Shown here one piece after another: positions 15,014 to 25,300 of a stretch of 29,630 nucleotides of DNA. Within the stretch, counting starts at the first letter, position 1, and every line of letters starts with the position of its first letter. Below the pieces are notes generated by a model. That model was not told the origin of the DNA, did no database searches, and saw only the letters and a list, made by a program, of their open reading frames with translations. Source of the stretch: Candidatus Heimdallarchaeota archaeon (GTDB taxonomy: Archaea; Asgardarchaeota; Heimdallarchaeia; Heimdallarchaeales; Heimdallarchaeaceae); contig DAOVER010000037.1 of assembly GCA_030668875.1 (NCBI GenBank), forward strand, positions 1-29,630, read 5' to 3'. Both the position numbers and the translations under genes were made by a program.

Positions 15014-16619
15014 GATACTCACTTGGTTAATCATTTTAGCAATTATATTGCCTACTATTCCAACAGCATTAGCTGAAACAGAAGAGGATTTTCGAAGCAT
15101 GAGTTTTGATGAAAAAGGTTACTTACTTAGATATGATATTGTTCAAGGTGACAATCTAGATAACGTTTTTTCAGATATGGGTTTCAACCTAAAGGGGACA
15201 CTCTCAAATGCTGAACTGCATGTTGTATTAAAAGATAGAAAAACTGTACTTCAAGATATTTATCTCATTGAAAAGGATAAATTTGAGCAGATGTATGTAA
15301 CATTATTTACAATGGAAACTTATGTCCTCCTTACAGAGTCAATTGAGGTAGAAGTAGATACTACAAGTGATGTTATCTTAGATTTAATTGATTTTAACTT
15401 CCAACCAGTAGAAGAAGAAATAATCAATGTTGTACTTCCAGCAGGAACAAGCATAGTTGTTCCAAAAATATTTACTAACATAACTAGACCTAATTTTGGT
15501 AGTATGTTAGAAAATCTAGATGTTTTTGATTTCTTACCGCTTGTTTTGGACTACGATTATACAAGGTTTGAAGCAGAATTTGCAACATTAGTTTTAGATC
15601 AAACTTTCTCAGTTAATGTATTTAATCAAGGCTATGATGACTTTACAGTGTCTCTAGAAGCAAACGTCGAACCAGCAATTTCAATGAAAGCTTCTTGGAA
15701 TAAAGAAAGTGGTATACTAAAATCATTTTCCTCTCACATTACTTCTGGGAATGAATCAACCACATTAATATTCTCATTAATGGACTATGAAAAAATTGAA
15801 TCACCAATAGACATTCCAGTTATTGATTATTTCATGAATAACAGCAAAGCTGATTTTGAATTTTATGCGGGTTCAAGCTCAACAGAAGATCTAATAATAG
15901 ACTGGGCAAATTGGGTCAATCAACTAAATCAAACATTCGGGATACAGTATGCCCTATTTGAATCAGGGTTAGATTTTGATTGGAGCATGCGCATTTATGA
16001 TTCAATCAATCAGTTATACTCTTTGCACACACCTATTCACAACTCATGGACAGCTCTTATGCCTCCGATTCTTCTTCCACTATGGGAAAGATTTGAAGGC
16101 ACTATTATTCTGATTCAAGAAGTCTTCAATCAGCTAGAAGATAAATTAAATGGATATCAATTTGAGCTGAAAGGGGTCACAGATACCCTATACACAATCG
16201 AGAAAGTTGAACTTAATATTGAATATCAGTATTTAGAGAATATGCATAATGTTATTTGGGATATATCTATCAAATACCAAGGAAATAACACTCAAACAGT
16301 TATTCCACGTGTTTTTGTAAATGAAGTTTATTATAATACAACTGGGTGGTTAGCTTATTCTGATGAAGGACTTCTGAAAGGTTTTTCACACTCATTTCAA
16401 GAGAATTTTCACTCTTATTATGATCCTGAGGAAACAACTCGTATAACTAATTATTTCTTTGAATATCTAATAGAATCCAATATTCTAAATTTAACAATAC
16501 CTTCGTTTCTACCAGATTTGAATAAGACCAGTTTTTCCAATTTTGGGCAGATAGTTTTTTATGTTCTTTTAGTCTATTTTATTTGGAGAAAAAGACGTCA
16601 AAAAAGTGTATTCATGTGA
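15003..16619 (+). CDS. Secreted/cell-surface protein with C-terminal TM anchor and basic tail (CTERM-like)
   Basis: Start reassigned to ATG 15003 (MKNKILTWLIILAIILPTIPTALA, a signal peptide), overlapping the MMPL stop. Acidic beta-rich body; ends FGQIVFYVLLVYFIW-RKRRQK. Confidence 0.75.
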   Translation: MKNKILTWLIILAIILPTIPTALAETEEDFRSMSFDEKGYLLRYDIVQGDNLDNVFSDMGFNLKGTLSNAELHVVLKDRKTVLQDIYLIEKDKFEQMYVTLFTMETYVLLTESIEVEVDTTSDVILDLIDFNFQPVEEEIINVVLPAGTSIVVPKIFTNITRPNFGSMLENLDVFDFLPLVLDYDYTRFEAEFATLVLDQTFSVNVFNQGYDDFTVSLEANVEPAISMKASWNKESGILKSFSSHITSGNESTTLIFSLMDYEKIESPIDIPVIDYFMNNSKADFEFYAGSSSTEDLIIDWANWVNQLNQTFGIQYALFESGLDFDWSMRIYDSINQLYSLHTPIHNSWTALMPPILLPLWERFEGTIILIQEVFNQLEDKLNGYQFELKGVTDTLYTIEKVELNIEYQYLENMHNVIWDISIKYQGNNTQTVIPRVFVNEVYYNTTGWLAYSDEGLLKGFSHSFQENFHSYYDPEETTRITNYFFEYLIESNILNLTIPSFLPDLNKTSFSNFGQIVFYVLLVYFIWRKRRQKSVFM

Positions 16620-18403
16620 ATCCCCCACCAAATTCTGGCAATAAGTATATCTTAGATACAAACTTCTTCATTAGTGGTTTTGAGAAAAACCCCTCTGATT
16701 TTAACCTGTTTCTAAGAATAATGACAGATATGGAAATTGAACTTTATGTGACTAATTTTATTCTTCAAGAAATTAGGTGGTACTTGAGAAGGAGGATAAA
16801 ACCTCCGGTTCAAATCGAAAAAGTATTAATAAAAAATATTCGGGAATATAAGGAAAACATCGGTGAAAATGCAGCAGAAGCACCTCAGATGAATGATTTA
16901 TCTAATATTCTTGCAGCAACAAATGTAAATGGAACAGTAGTAACAAGTGATTTAAAACTAGTGAAATTCTGCGAACTTGAAAATATACCTGTTCTTATTA
17001 GTTCATCTTTTGTTTTTCTTCTGAAAACTACATGTAAAGATCTTGAAAACGAAAAACTACTTGATAAGATTTATGATATTATTCTTTCAGATGAAATTCG
17101 TCACTCTGTTGAGAAAAGACAAACATACGACCCAGTGACTAGGATAAAAAAAATACAAGAGCATGCTATAAATGTGTTGCAAAATATTAGTGAAACAAAA
17201 AGAGTTCCATCTGAAAAACCTTCATCTGAGTATCATCTTTTAGACGAAGAAAATAATCTAATTGATCTCATGAATGAGATTGAATTTGAATTTCCAAATT
17301 ACTTAGAACAATTAGAAAAAGGTAGTCTAGAAGGACTTTATTATGAATTGGAAGAAGCTTACACTGCTTTATCTGATTTATCACTTGAACTAAGAATTGC
17401 TCTGGTTGAAAAAGAAAGTTACATTGAGGAACTAGCCATACGCTTGAAGGCTAGAATATTATTTCTACTAAGCATTGTAGAATTTGCTTTGCTTGATTTT
17501 GATAAATTGGAAAGTCATTTGAATACAATCACAGAGATTTCAACCATCTTTCCTTCACTAGTTGCTGACATTTTTATGGATTTGCATTTTCTACGAATGG
17601 TTTACTTCTTACTTTCTGACAATCATGAAAGATTGAAAAGTTACTACTCGGAGAAATTTCTCTTATTATGTGAAAAACAAGATCGCTTAGACCTATTTGG
17701 ACTAACAAGAGCAGTGATTCTAGCTTCAACTATTATGGAAAGTGGATTAATAGATAAGAAAGCATCCATCGATGGAAGGGACGAAATTTCCTTACTAATT
17801 CAGATAGGTTATATATTACTTCAAAGAGAGGAGTTCGAACACGCCCTTCTAATTCTTCTGCAATCACATTATCTTGCTATCAATCTTAAAGAGACCGTAC
17901 TAGCGAAGGACACTCTAGAACTACTTGTGATTTTGCACCATTCTATTAAGGAAACATGCACCGAAGAGATTTATCAAGGAATTGAAGATTTGAAGGAAAT
18001 GGGAGTTTATGATTTACCAGTAATTACCTATGCAAATATGAATGAATTGAGAAGATTAACAACTCAAGAGTTTGTATCCGTAGATCAACTCTTTGTCATT
18101 TTACAGGATTGGTTCTACATTTACAGTAGTGGGACAATTGTTAAACAAGGTCAAGTTCAAACCTATTTACTTCTGAAAAACCCCTATTTTTCACCCAGAA
18201 TTGCGATACTTCTGAAAAACCCTTTATCGAAACACGATATAACTCCTGGAAGACAAATAAAGATATTTGAAGGCAAAATAAAATCATCTATCCCAAAAGA
18301 ATCTACGATAAATGGTTATGCTATTGATTTATTAATAGAGTTAGAAGAAAAAGATGTGAAATTTATCTTTAGAGGACCATTTGGAATGAAAATTATTCTT
18401 TAA
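16616..18403 (+). CDS. PIN-domain ribonuclease fused to a long alpha-helical (TPR-like) region and a C-terminal beta-rich domain
   Basis: YILDTNFF, ILQEIR, MNDLSNIL and VVTSDLKL supply the four acidic PIN residues. The GTG start at 16616 overlaps the upstream TGA (GTGA). Confidence 0.75.
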   Translation: MNPPPNSGNKYILDTNFFISGFEKNPSDFNLFLRIMTDMEIELYVTNFILQEIRWYLRRRIKPPVQIEKVLIKNIREYKENIGENAAEAPQMNDLSNILAATNVNGTVVTSDLKLVKFCELENIPVLISSSFVFLLKTTCKDLENEKLLDKIYDIILSDEIRHSVEKRQTYDPVTRIKKIQEHAINVLQNISETKRVPSEKPSSEYHLLDEENNLIDLMNEIEFEFPNYLEQLEKGSLEGLYYELEEAYTALSDLSLELRIALVEKESYIEELAIRLKARILFLLSIVEFALLDFDKLESHLNTITEISTIFPSLVADIFMDLHFLRMVYFLLSDNHERLKSYYSEKFLLLCEKQDRLDLFGLTRAVILASTIMESGLIDKKASIDGRDEISLLIQIGYILLQREEFEHALLILLQSHYLAINLKETVLAKDTLELLVILHHSIKETCTEEIYQGIEDLKEMGVYDLPVITYANMNELRRLTTQEFVSVDQLFVILQDWFYIYSSGTIVKQGQVQTYLLLKNPYFSPRIAILLKNPLSKHDITPGRQIKIFEGKIKSSIPKESTINGYAIDLLIELEEKDVKFIFRGPFGMKIIL

Positions 18404-19346
18404 TAGCTGATTTCCATTTCTGTATAATTTCCACTAGTTCTTGCGTTTCTATTGGATAATTCTTTACTCTATCGACCTGTTGACTCATTTCATGAGTTAC
18501 GAGAGTTGTTAGAGCACCCATTTCCATTAATGCGTCCCTTGCTTTTGCAAATGCATCAAGTAATTCTTCCCTGCTTCCCCCAACATAAACAACAGAAAGA
18601 AGGTTCTCATAGATTTGTTCGGGGGCAAGGCTTCCCCAATTTCGTGTAACATCTGTCATTTCTGCAAAATCAGAGGAGATAATAACATACCCTTGGCCAA
18701 CTTTCTTTATATTTTCTTGTTGAACTAATCTAAACAAAGCTCTATTTATTGTAGGGATATCTGAATTTAATTGCTGAATTATGTTTTCTTCAATTAAAGG
18801 CATTTCAGATTTGATGAGCGCACCTAATATTTGTTGTTCAATGGTTCCTTGAGAACTACAATGTTTGACTAAATCTTGAAGCGAATGAATAAAAACATCA
18901 TCCGTTGGTTTTCTATAGTATGCCATAATCTTTTCAACAAACTCATTCACTTTGTTTCCAACAACTGAGGTTGAGGCTTCTTGAGCTGGAAAAGATGACT
19001 GTTGATGAGGAATAGGAGTTTCTTTCAGCTTCTTTATTTCAAGCTCTTTTTGTTGAAGCAATTTGGTGAGTTCATGTTCCCGATCCTTTCTAGATTTTTT
19101 ATCTTCTTCGTGGTAATAGCGTTGCTCTTCCAAACGTTTAGAATAGTTTTCGATTTCAGAATCTTTCTGAACGATAATCTTGTTAACCTCAAGCATTTGA
19201 GCTTCGACTTCTTCTACTTTTGCACTTTGATTAGCGATACGTTGTTGTAATTGTGCTATGAATTGCTTTTGTGCTTGATCACGTAATTTTGCCTTTCTTG
19301 GATCATCAGATGAATTCTCATTATCAAATGGGTTATGAACCATCAT
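18393..19346 (-). CDS. Coiled-coil plus winged-helix protein with C-terminal helical bundle
   Basis: About 90-aa coiled coil, P/Q/S linker, then QILGALIKSEMPLIEENIIQQLNSDIPTINRALFRLVQQENIKKVGQGYVI. Start set at the MMVHNP methionines. Confidence 0.7.
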   Translation of the reverse strand: MMVHNPFDNENSSDDPRKAKLRDQAQKQFIAQLQQRIANQSAKVEEVEAQMLEVNKIIVQKDSEIENYSKRLEEQRYYHEEDKKSRKDREHELTKLLQQKELEIKKLKETPIPHQQSSFPAQEASTSVVGNKVNEFVEKIMAYYRKPTDDVFIHSLQDLVKHCSSQGTIEQQILGALIKSEMPLIEENIIQQLNSDIPTINRALFRLVQQENIKKVGQGYVIISSDFAEMTDVTRNWGSLAPEQIYENLLSVVYVGGSREELLDAFAKARDALMEMGALTTLVTHEMSQQVDRVKNYPIETQELVEIIQKWKSAIKE

Positions 19347-19445
19347 TATACACCTTATACAAATAATCATTAAGTAACAAATAAAGGTATTTATTCTAAA
19401 AAAATAATGACAATGTATTATTGAAGAGAAAAGAAGTCATCAATC

Positions 19446-21178: not shown

Positions 21179-21310
21179 AAATATCCTATCTAAACATTCA
21201 TCTTGATTGGCAAAATTTTAATTAGATGTAGGATTTACTTTGTCTAATAATAGAAACCATTCTAATATTATCTCTATTACATCTATCACTCAAGAAACAA
21301 AGGTATAATC

Positions 21311-22351
21311 ATGAATAAAGTTGGTATTGTTTCATTTGGTTCATATATTCCACATTATAGAATAAAAGTAGAAGAGATTGCAAAGGTATGGGATGAAGAT
21401 CCCGTTGAATTGAAAGCTCAATTACAGATTAGTAGCAAATCTGTTCCAGGACCAGATGAGGATGTAGCTACAATGGCAGTTGAATCTGCTCGAAATGCAA
21501 TTAGCAGATGGAAAGGTAAAGAGAAAGATATAGGTGCAATTTATGTTGGAAGTGAGTCTCATCCCTATGCAGTCAAACCAACAGCTACTATTGTTGCAGC
21601 AGCTTTAGATGTAGAAAAATCTCTGACAGCTGCTGATTTAGAATTTGCATGCAAAGCTGGAACTGCAGGAATGCAGATGTGTTTTGGATTAGTGAAATCA
21701 CAAATGATTTCGTTAGGATTAGCAATAGGAGCTGATAGTAGTCAAGGAAGACCAAGAGATCCATTAGAATATACAGCTGGAGCAGGAAGTGCAGCTTTTC
21801 TAATTGGTTCTGAGAATATTATAGCAGAGTTGGAAGGAACCCATTCAGTTACTACCGACATGCCTGATTTTTGGAGAAGGGAAGGAGCAGTGTATCCTTC
21901 TCATGGAGTCAGATTTACTGGGCAACCTGCTTATTTCAAACACACGATTGATGCTTCAAAAGGTTTAATGGAAGAATTGGGGACAAAACCCTCTGATTAT
22001 CAACATGTTATTTTCCATCAACCTAATGCTAAATTTCCTCAAGCAGTTGCTAGAATGTTAGGATTTTCGAAAGAACAAGTTGAATTAGGACTAATTTGCA
22101 AACATATGGGGAACGCTTATTCAGCTTCTTCAATCTTAGGATTTGCGAATGTCCTTAACCACACCAATCCTGGGGATAGAATACTTCTGACATCCTATGG
22201 AAGTGGAGCAGGAAGCGATTCATTTTCAGTTACAGTTACAGAAGCAATAGACAATATCCGTCCATACAAATATGATACACAGTACTATCTAAACCAAAGT
22301 GAGTACATAGAATATGGAAAGTATGCAAGATTTAAGGGGATTCTGAGGTGA
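21311..22351 (+). CDS. mvaS: Hydroxymethylglutaryl-CoA synthase (archaeal type)
   Basis: Catalytic set intact: GSESHPYAVKP (Glu), DLEFACKAGT (Cys114), FHQPN (His), GNAYS; C-terminal YGKYAR. Confidence 0.95.
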   Translation: MNKVGIVSFGSYIPHYRIKVEEIAKVWDEDPVELKAQLQISSKSVPGPDEDVATMAVESARNAISRWKGKEKDIGAIYVGSESHPYAVKPTATIVAAALDVEKSLTAADLEFACKAGTAGMQMCFGLVKSQMISLGLAIGADSSQGRPRDPLEYTAGAGSAAFLIGSENIIAELEGTHSVTTDMPDFWRREGAVYPSHGVRFTGQPAYFKHTIDASKGLMEELGTKPSDYQHVIFHQPNAKFPQAVARMLGFSKEQVELGLICKHMGNAYSASSILGFANVLNHTNPGDRILLTSYGSGAGSDSFSVTVTEAIDNIRPYKYDTQYYLNQSEYIEYGKYARFKGILR

Positions 22352-22355
22352 TTAA

Positions 22356-23537
22356 ATGGTAAAACACAACGTGTTTATAATTGGTACAGGAATAACGAGT
22401 TTTGGAGAAAATTATGAGAACGGCGCAAGTCAACTTGCTTCTCAAGCACTAACAAGTGCTATTGAAAATTCCAAAATCACGAAAGAATCAATACAGAGTA
22501 CATTTATTGGATCATTGGTTTCTGGCTCAAATTCACAACCATCCATTGGAGCTAATTGCCTTAGAGAGAGTAACATAATAACCCCTCATGTTCGAATTGA
22601 AGCAGGAAACGCTAGTGGTGCAGCTGCTTTTCATCAAGCATATCTTGGAATATTAAGTGGTGTCTATGACTGCTTGGCAGTTGTAGGTGTTGAGAAATTG
22701 AGCGATTTTGTTAATGTAGGATTAGTTGAAAGAATCCTAAGTTCAACTATTGATTATAAATGGGAATTTGAGATGGGTGCTACCTTAACAAGTCTCTATG
22801 CAATATTAACTAAAGCTCATATGAGAGAATTTCAAACAACTATGGAACAACTCGCAGCAGTTCCAGCAAAAAACCACAAGAATGGTGTTAACAATCCGAA
22901 TGCTCAATTCAGAAAAGAAATTACAATTGAAAGATTTCTTAATGCAAAAAGAATAGCAGACCCCATAGGAAAATTTGATCCAGCAACTCATTGCGATGGA
23001 AGTGCTTCTGTTATTTTAGCTTCAGAAGAGTTCATACTTCAGAATAAAGATATTAACAGTAAGGTTCCAATTCTAGGATCTAGTTATGCCTCGGATAGTT
23101 TAGCGCTACATCATCGTAATTCATTAACTGAACTAAATGCTTCAAAAACAGCAGCTGCAACAGCATACAAAATGGCAGACATTAAACCAGAAAAAATCAA
23201 TGTTGCTGAGGTTCATGACTCTTACCCAATAGGAGAAATCCTAGCAATTGAAGATCTTGGTTTCTTTAAGAAGGGCGAAGGAGGAAAAGCTGTTGAAGAA
23301 GGCTTAACGGAGCAAAATAGTCAAGTGAGCATAAATACTAGTGGTGGATTAAAAGCTAGAGGAGACCCATTCGGTGCAACTGGTATTGCTCAAATCATTG
23401 AGATAGTAAAACAGATGCAAGGAGAAGCAGGAAAACGTCAAGTTAGTTCTATTAACTACGGATTAGCACAAAATGTAATGGGTACAGGAGCCCTAACTCA
23501 CGTAAATATTCTTGGAGAAGAAGAGGTGAAAAAATAA
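22356..23537 (+). CDS. Archaeal acetyl-CoA acetyltransferase (thiolase)-family protein lacking canonical catalytic residues
   Basis: Fold motifs VGVEKL, KNHKNGVNNPNAQF, CDGSASVIL, AEVHD, NTSGGLKA and operon position identify the family. However EAACASG reads EAGNASG, HDCF reads HDSY and GHP reads GDP. Confidence 0.88.
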   Translation: MVKHNVFIIGTGITSFGENYENGASQLASQALTSAIENSKITKESIQSTFIGSLVSGSNSQPSIGANCLRESNIITPHVRIEAGNASGAAAFHQAYLGILSGVYDCLAVVGVEKLSDFVNVGLVERILSSTIDYKWEFEMGATLTSLYAILTKAHMREFQTTMEQLAAVPAKNHKNGVNNPNAQFRKEITIERFLNAKRIADPIGKFDPATHCDGSASVILASEEFILQNKDINSKVPILGSSYASDSLALHHRNSLTELNASKTAAATAYKMADIKPEKINVAEVHDSYPIGEILAIEDLGFFKKGEGGKAVEEGLTEQNSQVSINTSGGLKARGDPFGATGIAQIIEIVKQMQGEAGKRQVSSINYGLAQNVMGTGALTHVNILGEEEVKK

Positions 23538-23926
23538 TGGAACCACCAAAAATATGGAGAGAAAAACGAGGTAAATATTTAGCAATGGGAGTTGAGTGCT
23601 CAGACTGTATGACCAAACAGTTTCCTTTTACAGAGAACTGTACAAAGTGTGGCAGCAAAAATGTGAAAAAATACAAACTTGCTACAACAGGAAAAGTACT
23701 ATATTTTTCAACCGTTACTCAAACTACAGATGAAATGATGGTTTGTACCCCTTATTTAATCGCTATTATAGAACTGGCTGATGGAATTAAAGTCACAGGA
23801 CAAATCGTTGATTGCAATCTTAGTGAAGCGAAAGAAGGAATGAACGTAAGGATGGTTTTCCGTGTGTTAGCGAGAAATGGTTCAGAAGGTTTAATCCGTT
23901 ATGGATACAAATTTGCACCCATTTAG
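23537..23926 (+). CDS. DUF35 Zn-ribbon/OB-fold protein (thiolase-HMGS scaffold subunit)
   Basis: MEPPKIWR, CSDC...CTKC, GKVLYFS, PYLIAIIEL, GMNVRMVFR, YGYKF; TAATG overlap with the thiolase stop. Confidence 0.92.
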   Translation: MEPPKIWREKRGKYLAMGVECSDCMTKQFPFTENCTKCGSKNVKKYKLATTGKVLYFSTVTQTTDEMMVCTPYLIAIIELADGIKVTGQIVDCNLSEAKEGMNVRMVFRVLARNGSEGLIRYGYKFAPI

Positions 23927-23929
23927 ATT

Positions 23930-25300
23930 TTAAGTGGGTATATGCTGAAATGATTGAACTTCTAAACCTATATCTCCTATTTTCTTTTTTGCGTAATCGA
24001 CTTCGTGAGCATATTGCTGCTCTCCCCCAGTAAAGATTCCATGAACACCACCGTGATATATATCCTTAACAACTAAAAAGCCCATTCCGCACCCTAGTTT
24101 TTTGTTGTCACAGTAGGTAACGTAAAGATTTTCTTTATTCAAATCAAAATCCAAGTTAAGTTTAGCTATAACTTTATCTGGAAGTTGATGGCTAACTATT
24201 GAATTTGAGCAAAATGGACATTTTGTTGAAAAGAATTTCTTCATACGTTTTTTTGCTTCTCCGAAAATACCCGAGAACCAATAACCTGATGATACCCGTA
24301 AAAGAGAAGCTATTTCCATACTCGGAATCGTGCTCAACTGGTGAAGAGATGCTATTTCCGCAGGTTTAGCTACCTCAAGAAGTTGTTTGAAACCTTTAAT
24401 TGTAGTCTTAATCACTACAGGATTATCAAAATTTTTCTCTACAAATTCATTATCCTTAGGTAAATAAGGTTGAAGAAAACCCTCTTTTGGTTCTTTTGTA
24501 ATAATATTGAAAAACATTGCATTTGCAGTTGATGGAAATTTCTTTGTTTTAGTTCCAAAATAGTAAACTGCAAAATCCATCAATTTTGGATGTAGTGTTT
24601 CGTCAGGCTCATCAACCATAAAAATCATCATTTGATCGTTGTTTGTCAAAGTTAAAACCAATGGAGGAAGAGTGGGTTTGGAAAGATATACAGATTTTAT
24701 AACACCAATTCGTCTAGATGCAAAAATCTCTTCAAGGTTCATAACAGCTGTTTTAATATTCTCAGGACCTTCATATTCTATGGGTTTAGAAACTTCATAT
24801 CCTTGAGTTTTGAGAGATTCCTTAAAATCCATATTCCAAAATTCTTTAATCCAATCCCAAGGTAAGTAAACCACATTTTTCTTTTTATACCATTCTTTTG
24901 ATTCTCTAGCATCACCATCGAAGAAATAATATAATGGATGAGCCCGAGATGATTTTTCCACTATGATAATAGGTACAGCGGTCTTGCCTTCAAATTTCTC
25001 GCAATAAATTGGGTCTATTCCAGAGTTAAGAGAGAGCACGCAACTCAATAGCTTAAGAGCAGGTTCTTGAAGCTTCAATTCTATTTGATCGTCTGATCCT
25101 CTGAAAGGATCACTAATATCTCCACTACGTGCCCTGATACATAATAGGAGATCGTCTTTGTAGGCACAGATTATGATTCTTTTGTAACTTTGATAGAAAT
25201 CAACACCTCGTGTATAGATATTGCAAAGTTCAACTGTGAACCCTTGATCTTGTAGATAAGCCTCTACTAGTTTCATAAAATTGGTCTTAAACAAACTCAT
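23930..25300 (-). CDS. Hypothetical protein, possible inactive PD-(D/E)xK-like domains plus C-terminal Zn-binding motif
   Basis: 456-aa ORF. N-terminal LVEAYLQDQGFTV and ICAYKDDLLLCIRAR recall an Hjc-like core; C-terminal CPFC...CDNKKLGC. Confidence 0.55.
   Translation of the reverse strand: MSLFKTNFMKLVEAYLQDQGFTVELCNIYTRGVDFYQSYKRIIICAYKDDLLLCIRARSGDISDPFRGSDDQIELKLQEPALKLLSCVLSLNSGIDPIYCEKFEGKTAVPIIIVEKSSRAHPLYYFFDGDARESKEWYKKKNVVYLPWDWIKEFWNMDFKESLKTQGYEVSKPIEYEGPENIKTAVMNLEEIFASRRIGVIKSVYLSKPTLPPLVLTLTNNDQMMIFMVDEPDETLHPKLMDFAVYYFGTKTKKFPSTANAMFFNIITKEPKEGFLQPYLPKDNEFVEKNFDNPVVIKTTIKGFKQLLEVAKPAEIASLHQLSTIPSMEIASLLRVSSGYWFSGIFGEAKKRMKKFFSTKCPFCSNSIVSHQLPDKVIAKLNLDFDLNKENLYVTYCDNKKLGCGMGFLVVKDIYHGGVHGIFTGGEQQYAHEVDYAKKKIGDIGLEVQSFQHIPT

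Follow-up and report, generated by a model that had tools for sequence, protein, structure and literature searches.

In the genome of Candidatus Heimdallarchaeota archaeon we found a three-gene operon whose middle gene encodes a thiolase-fold protein that lacks the catalytic residues of a thiolase, flanked by genes for a 3-hydroxy-3-methylglutaryl-coenzyme A (HMG-CoA) synthase (HMGS) and a DUF35 protein. In archaea, the complex of thiolase, HMGS and DUF35 is the accepted entry to the synthesis of isoprenoid membrane lipids, and its rationale is the channelling of the thermodynamically unfavourable thiolase step. Here, the reading that we favour, to which we give about an even chance of being right, is that the thiolase-fold subunit is a non-catalytic partner of an active HMGS, serving the structure of the complex and its coenzyme A (CoA) cleft, and that acetoacetyl-CoA comes from outside the complex; both the role of the subunit and the source of the acetoacetyl-CoA are what we infer from the comparisons below. 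The stretch of DNA analysed, hereafter the window, comprises positions 1-29,630 of contig DAOVER010000037.1 (GCA_030668875.1), plus strand. The operon consists of three co-directional open reading frames (ORFs) with the following features.

21179..21310, plus strand: AT-rich intergenic sequence of 132 nt between grpE and the HMGS gene, the presumed promoter and leader.

21311..22351, plus strand: HMGS of the archaeal type, 346 aa, identified by its match to 6ESQ chain I, by NCBIfam cut-offs passed and by the tetrad E82/C114/H236/N268.

22356..23537, plus strand: thiolase-fold protein, 393 aa, without thiolase catalytic residues, identified from Pfam, alignment to solved structures, NCBIfam and a structure model.

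22608..22610, plus strand: codon AAC for Asn85, in place of the nucleophilic Cys (EAGNASG versus the canonical EAACASG), from the alignment and the codon read.

23214..23225, plus strand: His287-Asp288-Ser289-Tyr290 (HDSY) in place of HDCF, from the alignment, with codons CAT, TCT and TAC at 23214, 23220 and 23223.

23364..23366, plus strand: codon GAC for Asp337, which replaces the His of the GHP motif (KARGDPFG), from the alignment and the codon read.

23537..23926, plus strand: DUF35 scaffold protein with a zinc ribbon and an OB fold, 129 aa, identified by PF01796, 6ESQ chain E and four invariant Cys.

We aligned the thiolase-fold protein residue by residue to the solved thiolases 6ESQ/6ET9 and 7YVY. 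Asn85 occupies the place of the nucleophilic Cys and Asp337 that of the GHx His, and Ser289 aligns with the HDxF residue that is Cys in 6ESQ and Ala in 7YVY; this agrees with the codons and ORF coordinates given in a first-pass annotation of the window. That annotation had also taken all of the catalytic residues of the thiolase to be lost. This stands for Cys85 and His337, but less clearly for the third position, as the HDCF Cys is not universal: the motif is HDAF in 7YVY, and many relatives in which the other residues are intact, and which are presumably active, have Ala or Ser there. Because the HDCF Cys is replaced in presumably active relatives too, the losses of Cys85 and His337 are the decisive ones. 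The rest of the motif keeps His287 and Asp288 and ends in Tyr.

The thiolase fold is confirmed by Pfam (PF22691, 1.6e-40; PF00108, 4.2e-17) and by matches to the structures 7YVY (E = 5.5e-70) and 6ESQ (E = 4e-69). An AlphaFold model built with 75 sequences has a mean pLDDT (predicted local distance difference test) of 95 and superimposes on 6ET9 chain C, the thiolase of M. thermolithotrophicus, with a template-modelling (TM) score of 0.94 and a root mean square deviation of 1.4 A at 36% identity. The protein scores below the cut-offs of both the curated archaeal thiolase equivalog NF053570 (354.5 bits, cut-off 600) and the top NCBIfam model, NF004720, thiolase domain-containing protein (409, cut-off 420). 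Close orthologues carry that same name, 'thiolase domain-containing protein', at NCBI; JGI records call them acetyl-CoA C-acetyltransferase.

The two partners have kept their functional residues, as had been noted in the first pass and as the invariance of these residues in our alignments bears out. The HMGS matches 6ESQ chain I at E = 1.8e-130 and passes the cut-offs of NF003274 (527 bits versus 244) and TIGR00748 (500 versus 353), and its tetrad is intact and invariant across 99 HMGS sequences. The DUF35 protein matches PF01796 (1.6e-12) and 6ESQ chain E (E = 3.4e-23), and its zinc cysteines C21, C24, C35 and C38 are all invariant. The same genome encodes an HMG-CoA reductase, and HMG-CoA is therefore needed. 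Judged by the equivalog cut-offs, the intact tetrad and the presence of the reductase, the HMGS looks active.

The altered positions are stable across the family. Among the 62 closest database proteins (56-93% identity; Heimdallarchaeota or Heimdallarchaeaceae wherever named), position 85 is N, T or A, position 289 is S, A or I, and position 337 is D, once N. In 73 orthologues from Heimdallarchaeaceae, position 85 is N in 59, T in 13 and another residue in one, position 337 is D in 72, and none of the family orthologues examined has Cys at position 85. Of the 23 other genomes of the genus, 21 have the gene, in each case flanked by HMGS and DUF35 and showing the Cys-less pattern. In close pairs with unsaturated dS, the ratio of nonsynonymous to synonymous substitution rates (dN/dS) is 0.08-0.14 for the thiolase-fold gene, 0.05-0.10 for HMGS and 0.08-0.18 for DUF35. 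Contigs that Logan assembled for three runs of a single marine-sediment study match the codons and show no difference at codon 85, although these runs may be the source sample and so add no independent evidence.

The first-pass annotation had argued for selection rather than decay, and the 73 conserved orthologues, the low dN/dS, which marks purifying selection, and the continued coupling of the operon are in accord with it: the substitutions are selected states, neither error nor decay. A decaying pseudogene, or errors of assembly or sequencing, would have nothing in its favour beyond the lost catalytic residues themselves. Against it stand the open frame of 393 aa, a pattern that is the same in the 62 database proteins and 21 genomes, the dN/dS of about 0.1, the pLDDT of the model and the agreement of separately assembled contigs at the codons, and we give this explanation practically no credence.

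The nearest known system is the archaeal HMGS/thiolase/DUF35 complex (6ESQ/6ET9). It consists of the same three proteins encoded in one operon, the HMGS tetrad is identical, the DUF35 zinc cysteines are shared, and our thiolase-fold subunit matches its thiolase over the full length. The difference is that the subunit here has no nucleophilic Cys, no HDCF Cys and no GHx His; the known mechanism cannot carry out the channelled two-step reaction that starts from acetyl-CoA. The archaeal complex depends on H284 of HDxF and on the HMGS tetrad, and the fused CoA chamber is kept in derived HMGS/thiolase/DUF35 complexes (PMC12960953).

We therefore propose the following, on the strength of these comparisons. 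The thiolase-fold subunit can no longer work as a thiolase, having neither a nucleophilic Cys nor an acid/base Cys, and an Asp sits where the activating, oxyanion-hole His should be. Most likely it is retained as an obligatory non-catalytic partner, which would join DUF35 in holding the HMGS dimers and would contribute its own half of the fused cleft for CoA. The only active enzyme of the complex would then be HMGS, and acetoacetyl-CoA would enter from outside. In this genus, the sole recognisable route for its supply would run from butyryl- or crotonyl-CoA through 3-hydroxybutyryl-CoA to acetoacetyl-CoA.

To see how far this arrangement extends, we searched species-representative genomes with the conserved HMGS and retrieved 80 named loci. 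A canonical HMGS-linked thiolase (C, HDCF or HDAF, GHP) is present in Methanobacteriales, Methanosarcinales, Methanocellales, Hadesarchaea, Hydrothermarchaeota, Micrarchaeota, Nitrososphaeria and Aenigmatarchaeota. The Cys-less form occurs at every Heimdall locus and in Methanomassiliicoccales, Methanomethylophilaceae, other Thermoplasmata including Thermoplasmataceae, and one ANME-1 (Methanophagales) genome, the only ANME-1 genome in the sample; most of the sampled Thermoplasmatota are Cys-less. Among 25 Asgard loci, Cys is retained in nine families and lost in seven, and, for the wider family, roughly a third of some 145 cluster representatives lack it. A quick maximum-likelihood tree requires three or more independent changes of the Cys state, of which two are dictated by branches with good support; on this tree the 17 Heimdall rows make up a single Cys-less group, and the stem branch of Heimdallarchaeaceae is long, at about 1.0 substitutions per site.

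The residues that replace the catalytic ones differ between lineages. Other Heimdall families have E, G or D at position 85 and A, Y or H at position 337, and Thermoplasmatota have G, D, T or S at position 85 and D, H, N, Q or Y at position 337; F is also seen at position 337 across the lineages. Because both positions vary in this way, thiolase chemistry would appear to be gone without any single new catalytic solution having taken its place. The first-pass annotation had presented the operon as a singular, undescribed system. We found no paper describing Cys-less HMGS-linked thiolases, but their recurrence in many archaeal lineages means that the operon is not singular; such proteins are widespread in archaea and apparently undescribed in the literature.

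Three side observations came from the same survey. In a small closed Asgard genome (family f6) the HMGS-linked thiolase-fold protein lacks the HDxF His too (IFDSY), along with the Cys (ETGESSG), and GHP is kept; from its motifs, this protein is a putative further state of disarmament. One closed Heimdallarchaeum genome carries two identical copies of HMGS plus Cys-less thiolase about 4.2 kb apart (C1:1296094-1301888). Four records with bacterial titles (Bacteroides ovatus, Dialister hominis, Anaerolineales bacterium and Saccharimonadales bacterium) also contain HMGS-thiolase-DUF35 operons of the archaeal type, which on the tree group with Methanomassiliicoccales, Methanomethylophilaceae, ANME-2 and Micrarchaeota, respectively; in all four, contigs of archaea have probably been binned wrongly with bacteria.

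Outside the genus, a Cys-less copy is often accompanied by a canonical one. Each of five genomes of the Methanomassiliicoccales type has a bacterial-type thiolase (PF00108, E about 1e-97). Our protein query had at first suggested that Methanomassiliicoccales were Cys-less with a single copy, and we dropped this after the PF00108 search showed the thiolases. Paralogues number 5-9 in two Heimdall families (f3 and f4), and seven of the eight examined are canonical C/HDCF/GHP. The closed genomes of Heimdallarchaeum, the sister genus, have exactly one canonical thiolase (EDACASG/HDCF/GHP), with its own DUF35 gene downstream and 46% identity to our query. In most Cys-less lineages, then, a second, working thiolase in the same genome is the common arrangement, and this repeated co-occurrence shows that a disarmed subunit beside an active HMGS is viable and stable.

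Several observations weigh against a non-catalytic partner fed from outside, and we take them together here. The first concerns the genus itself, in which a second, intact thiolase had been proposed as a thing to look for. The protein query, which is sensitive enough to pick up sister-family paralogues of as little as 27% identity, returned the Cys-less copy alone in 22 of 24 genomes, the one studied here included, and no match at all in two incomplete ones. PF00108 found only the Cys-less copy in all nine genus genomes searched with it, and PF02803, PF08541 and PF01796 added nothing in the genome studied here, which is 92% complete. Two further genera of the family (g10 and g12; one g10 genome is 95% complete) likewise gave the Cys-less copy only. 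Since no other thiolase was found, a scaffold-only role leaves the acetoacetyl-CoA unexplained.

An acetoacetyl-CoA-forming enzyme that we did not see, lying in unassembled parts of the genomes or belonging to a family that was not searched, is one way out. The genus genomes are all metagenome-assembled and 72-92% complete, our searches covered the thiolase-superfamily models and a few beta-oxidation families, and the failure of the protein query in Methanomassiliicoccales, where PF00108 succeeded, shows that such misses happen. Candidates would be a CoA ligase or transferase that activates acetoacetate, a ketosynthase (KS) megasynthase that releases acetoacetyl-CoA, or an unrecognised enzyme. 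Yet the absence is consistent over 24 genomes with a query of that sensitivity, PF00108 gave nothing further in the nine genus genomes or in the 95%-complete g10 genome, and the genome studied here has only one DUF35 gene. A thiolase-DUF35 pair like that of the sister genus would have been found, given its 46% identity to the query. We regard an unseen supplier as improbable.

A megasynthase of 3376 aa on contig C39 does exist, and its two KS domains are the sole other thiolase-superfamily domains in this genome. At C39:5933-13124, outside the window, an acyl-CoA carboxyltransferase gene lies directly upstream of the megasynthase ORF. We considered whether megasynthase and canonical thiolase have complementary distributions, and rejected this: the megasynthase is in every Heimdall genus checked, thiolase-bearing ones included. 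A weak match to ACP_syn_III_C on contig C85 proved spurious, the protein being a PALP enzyme.

The second difficulty lies in the four-carbon (C4) route. All 24 genomes of the genus have one 3-hydroxybutyryl-CoA dehydrogenase (Hbd) and one short-chain enoyl-CoA hydratase (crotonase), and 20 of the 24 have one short-chain acyl-CoA dehydrogenase; together the three enzymes could convert butyryl- or crotonyl-CoA to acetoacetyl-CoA. Hbd is ancestral and occurs also in sister genera and families, and its retention after the loss of the thiolase fits a role independent of thiolysis. The three genes are, however, single-copy and dispersed, and the route has no evident feed; 4-hydroxybutyryl-CoA dehydratase, tried as a source of crotonyl-CoA, is present in only one of the 24 genomes. 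The single crotonase gene of the genus has as its neighbour, at the end of a contig, a gene of the Hydantoinase_B/oxoprolinase family (C41:16967-18547, minus strand), whose best NCBIfam match, caprolactamase beta, is far under the cut-off. A tie of this gene to C3/C4 keto-acid metabolism is conceivable by analogy, as its family includes acetone and acetophenone carboxylases.

The third point is that formation of the complex is assumed, from homology and gene order. A complex prediction for HMGS, DUF35 and the thiolase-fold protein scored 0.89 versus 0.83 in a control with HMGS replaced, which gives no verdict.

Finally, the former active site is not drifting, and a new function would fit this as well. 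The most conserved stretches in the family are the former catalytic loops, AEVHDSYPI with an entropy of 0.16 and GGLKARGDPFGA with 0.15, against a protein mean of 1.04; in true thiolases of equal overall divergence the same two loops are less conserved (0.35 and 0.27). His287 and Asp288 are invariant across 75 sequences. Residues 57-74, a stretch that carries an invariant Glu-His, Asp and Gly in canonical enzymes, are now the most variable part of the protein (entropy 1.65 versus 0.86). In the Heimdallarchaeaceae family, new fixed residues have taken over some 35 positions at which canonical enzymes are 85% or more conserved, and most of these positions are unchanged in other Cys-less lineages. 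Nearly all Cys-less lineages have Ala at position 210, where canonical enzymes have a conserved Ser, and we count this change on the side of the non-catalytic partner; we presume that this Ser may be equivalent to the pantetheine-contacting Ser of bacterial thiolase structures. The HMGS of the genus has 16 changes at otherwise conserved positions, of which G240T/A and T269A flank catalytic residues. Together these patterns show strong constraint on a remodelled cleft, which is compatible with binding (for example, a shared CoA site facing HMGS) or with catalysis. We also asked whether the nucleophile might have been relocated. Cys106 and Cys213 are conserved in the family, but other Cys-less lineages have I/V and S/T there; Cys106, which takes the place of a hydrophobic Ile or Val, looks like a core residue, and we rejected both.

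The remodelled subunit might thus still be catalytic with a different chemistry, the complex itself delivering acetoacetyl-CoA or HMG-CoA, a possibility that we hold to be rather unlikely and yet the most serious competitor. In one version, the pocket would decarboxylate malonyl-CoA, the Asn85 amide standing in for Cys as Gln does in KSQ/CLF, to give an acetyl-CoA enolate. In another, HMGS, with its KAS III-like C-H-N set, would condense malonyl-CoA on acetyl-Cys114 in the manner of NphT7, and the thiolase-fold partner would present the CoA substrate. Such chemistry would answer the lack of any other thiolase in the genus and in g10 and g12. It would also suit the exceptional conservation of the former catalytic loops, the invariance of His287 and Asp288 (the HDxF His is essential in the canonical complex, as shown by H284A; PMC12960953), the long stem branch with its many newly fixed residues unseen in other Cys-less lineages, and the HMGS changes beside catalytic residues. 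The carboxyltransferase on contig C39 could provide malonyl-CoA, but it lies beside the megasynthase and probably serves it.

A precedent of a kind is TbSLP of Trypanosoma brucei (5AB4-5AB7), a Cys-less SCP2-thiolase-like protein, which binds acetoacetyl-CoA and malonyl-CoA in crystals and is only a weak, very slow malonyl-CoA decarboxylase (PMC12329534). It differs in having a YDCF motif, in being eukaryotic and without an HMGS or DUF35 partner, and in sharing only 22% identity with our protein. Further arguments run the other way. Position 85 is not fixed even within the family, and the Thr of 13 orthologues cannot mimic an amide; the sister Heimdall families, as given above, have other residues at both positions; a carboxylate in the oxyanion hole would be expected to hinder enolate chemistry; and no precedent is known for an HMGS that uses malonyl-CoA or for a thiolase without a covalent intermediate. 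The stronger claim, that this genus and probably two sister genera run a mevalonate pathway without a Cys-dependent thiolase, the complex making acetoacetyl-CoA or HMG-CoA by an undescribed mechanism such as malonyl-CoA-driven decarboxylative condensation (in the Asn85/His287/Asp337 pocket or on the HMGS Cys), seems to us unlikely, and a little more so than new chemistry in general. On balance we favour the non-catalytic partner over its rivals; in this genus a new function of the subunit stays in play as an alternative, given the lack of a supplier and the additional remodelling.

Other known systems resemble this one in part. In PhlABC of Pseudomonas, MucABC/SmaATase of Streptococcus and the ACAT/HMGS-DUF35 complex of P. 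fluorescens (5M3K, 9VBO), one thiolase-superfamily subunit is likewise dead yet retained. These complexes are nevertheless a mirror image of our operon, as their HMGS-like subunit is the dead one and their thiolase-like subunit keeps its Cys and its chemistry (PMC12960953). A Friedel-Crafts acyltransferase of the PhlC/MucB type can be rejected here: it needs an acetylated Cys88/Cys87, loss of HDxF and an HMGS-like partner without the tetrad, whereas our protein has no Cys, keeps HD and is paired with a full tetrad. ST0096 of Sulfolobus tokodaii (4YZO) belongs to the same archaeal subfamily (E = 8e-52) and has neither the nucleophilic Cys (a Ser is aligned) nor the HDCF Cys (HDMA); it differs in keeping the GHP His, and we found no functional paper on it.

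The steroid side-chain retro-aldolases Ltp2-ChsH2(DUF35) and Sal-Shy (6OK1; PMC12329534) also have a Cys-less fold, of the SCP2-thiolase type, that works with a DUF35 domain, and the first-pass annotation had offered an Ltp2-like activity for our protein. We do not follow it in this. Those enzymes use a catalytic Tyr that opens YDHF/YDCY and have a MaoC hydratase partner, whereas here the motif is HDSY, the partners are HMGS and a stand-alone DUF35, and the match is only 1e-19, compared with 4e-69 for archaeal thiolases.

The layout of the operon is tight. AAGGT, a Shine-Dalgarno-like sequence, lies 8 nt 5' of the HMGS ATG. The gap between the HMGS stop and the start of the thiolase-fold gene is 4 nt, and the stop of the latter overlaps the DUF35 ATG by 1 nt (TAATG). 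GAGGTGA precedes both downstream starts, the copy for the thiolase-fold gene being inside the 3' end of HMGS. The order HMGS-thiolase-DUF35 is kept in 30 of 30 related loci. Three ORFs nearby have no Pfam match at E 1e-4: 23930-25300 (minus strand, 456 aa), which is convergent with DUF35 and ends 4 nt from its stop; 18393-19370 (minus strand, 325 aa); and 16583-18403 (plus strand, 606 aa). The other neighbours of the operon are housekeeping genes, namely those for GrpE, RNase HII, Trm1 and a rhomboid protein.

The thiolase half of the complex has been disarmed in many lineages, including the Heimdall relatives of eukaryotes. Annotations as acetyl-CoA acetyltransferase are wrong in those lineages, and pathways reconstructed from them are unsafe. 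What is special to this genus is that no replacement thiolase was found, so that the first step of its lipid synthesis is unaccounted for. Either carbon enters differently, by way of malonyl-CoA or a C4 acyl-CoA, or a thiolase fold performs new chemistry, and both options bear on how lipid metabolism was organised in the archaeal lineage closest to eukaryotes.

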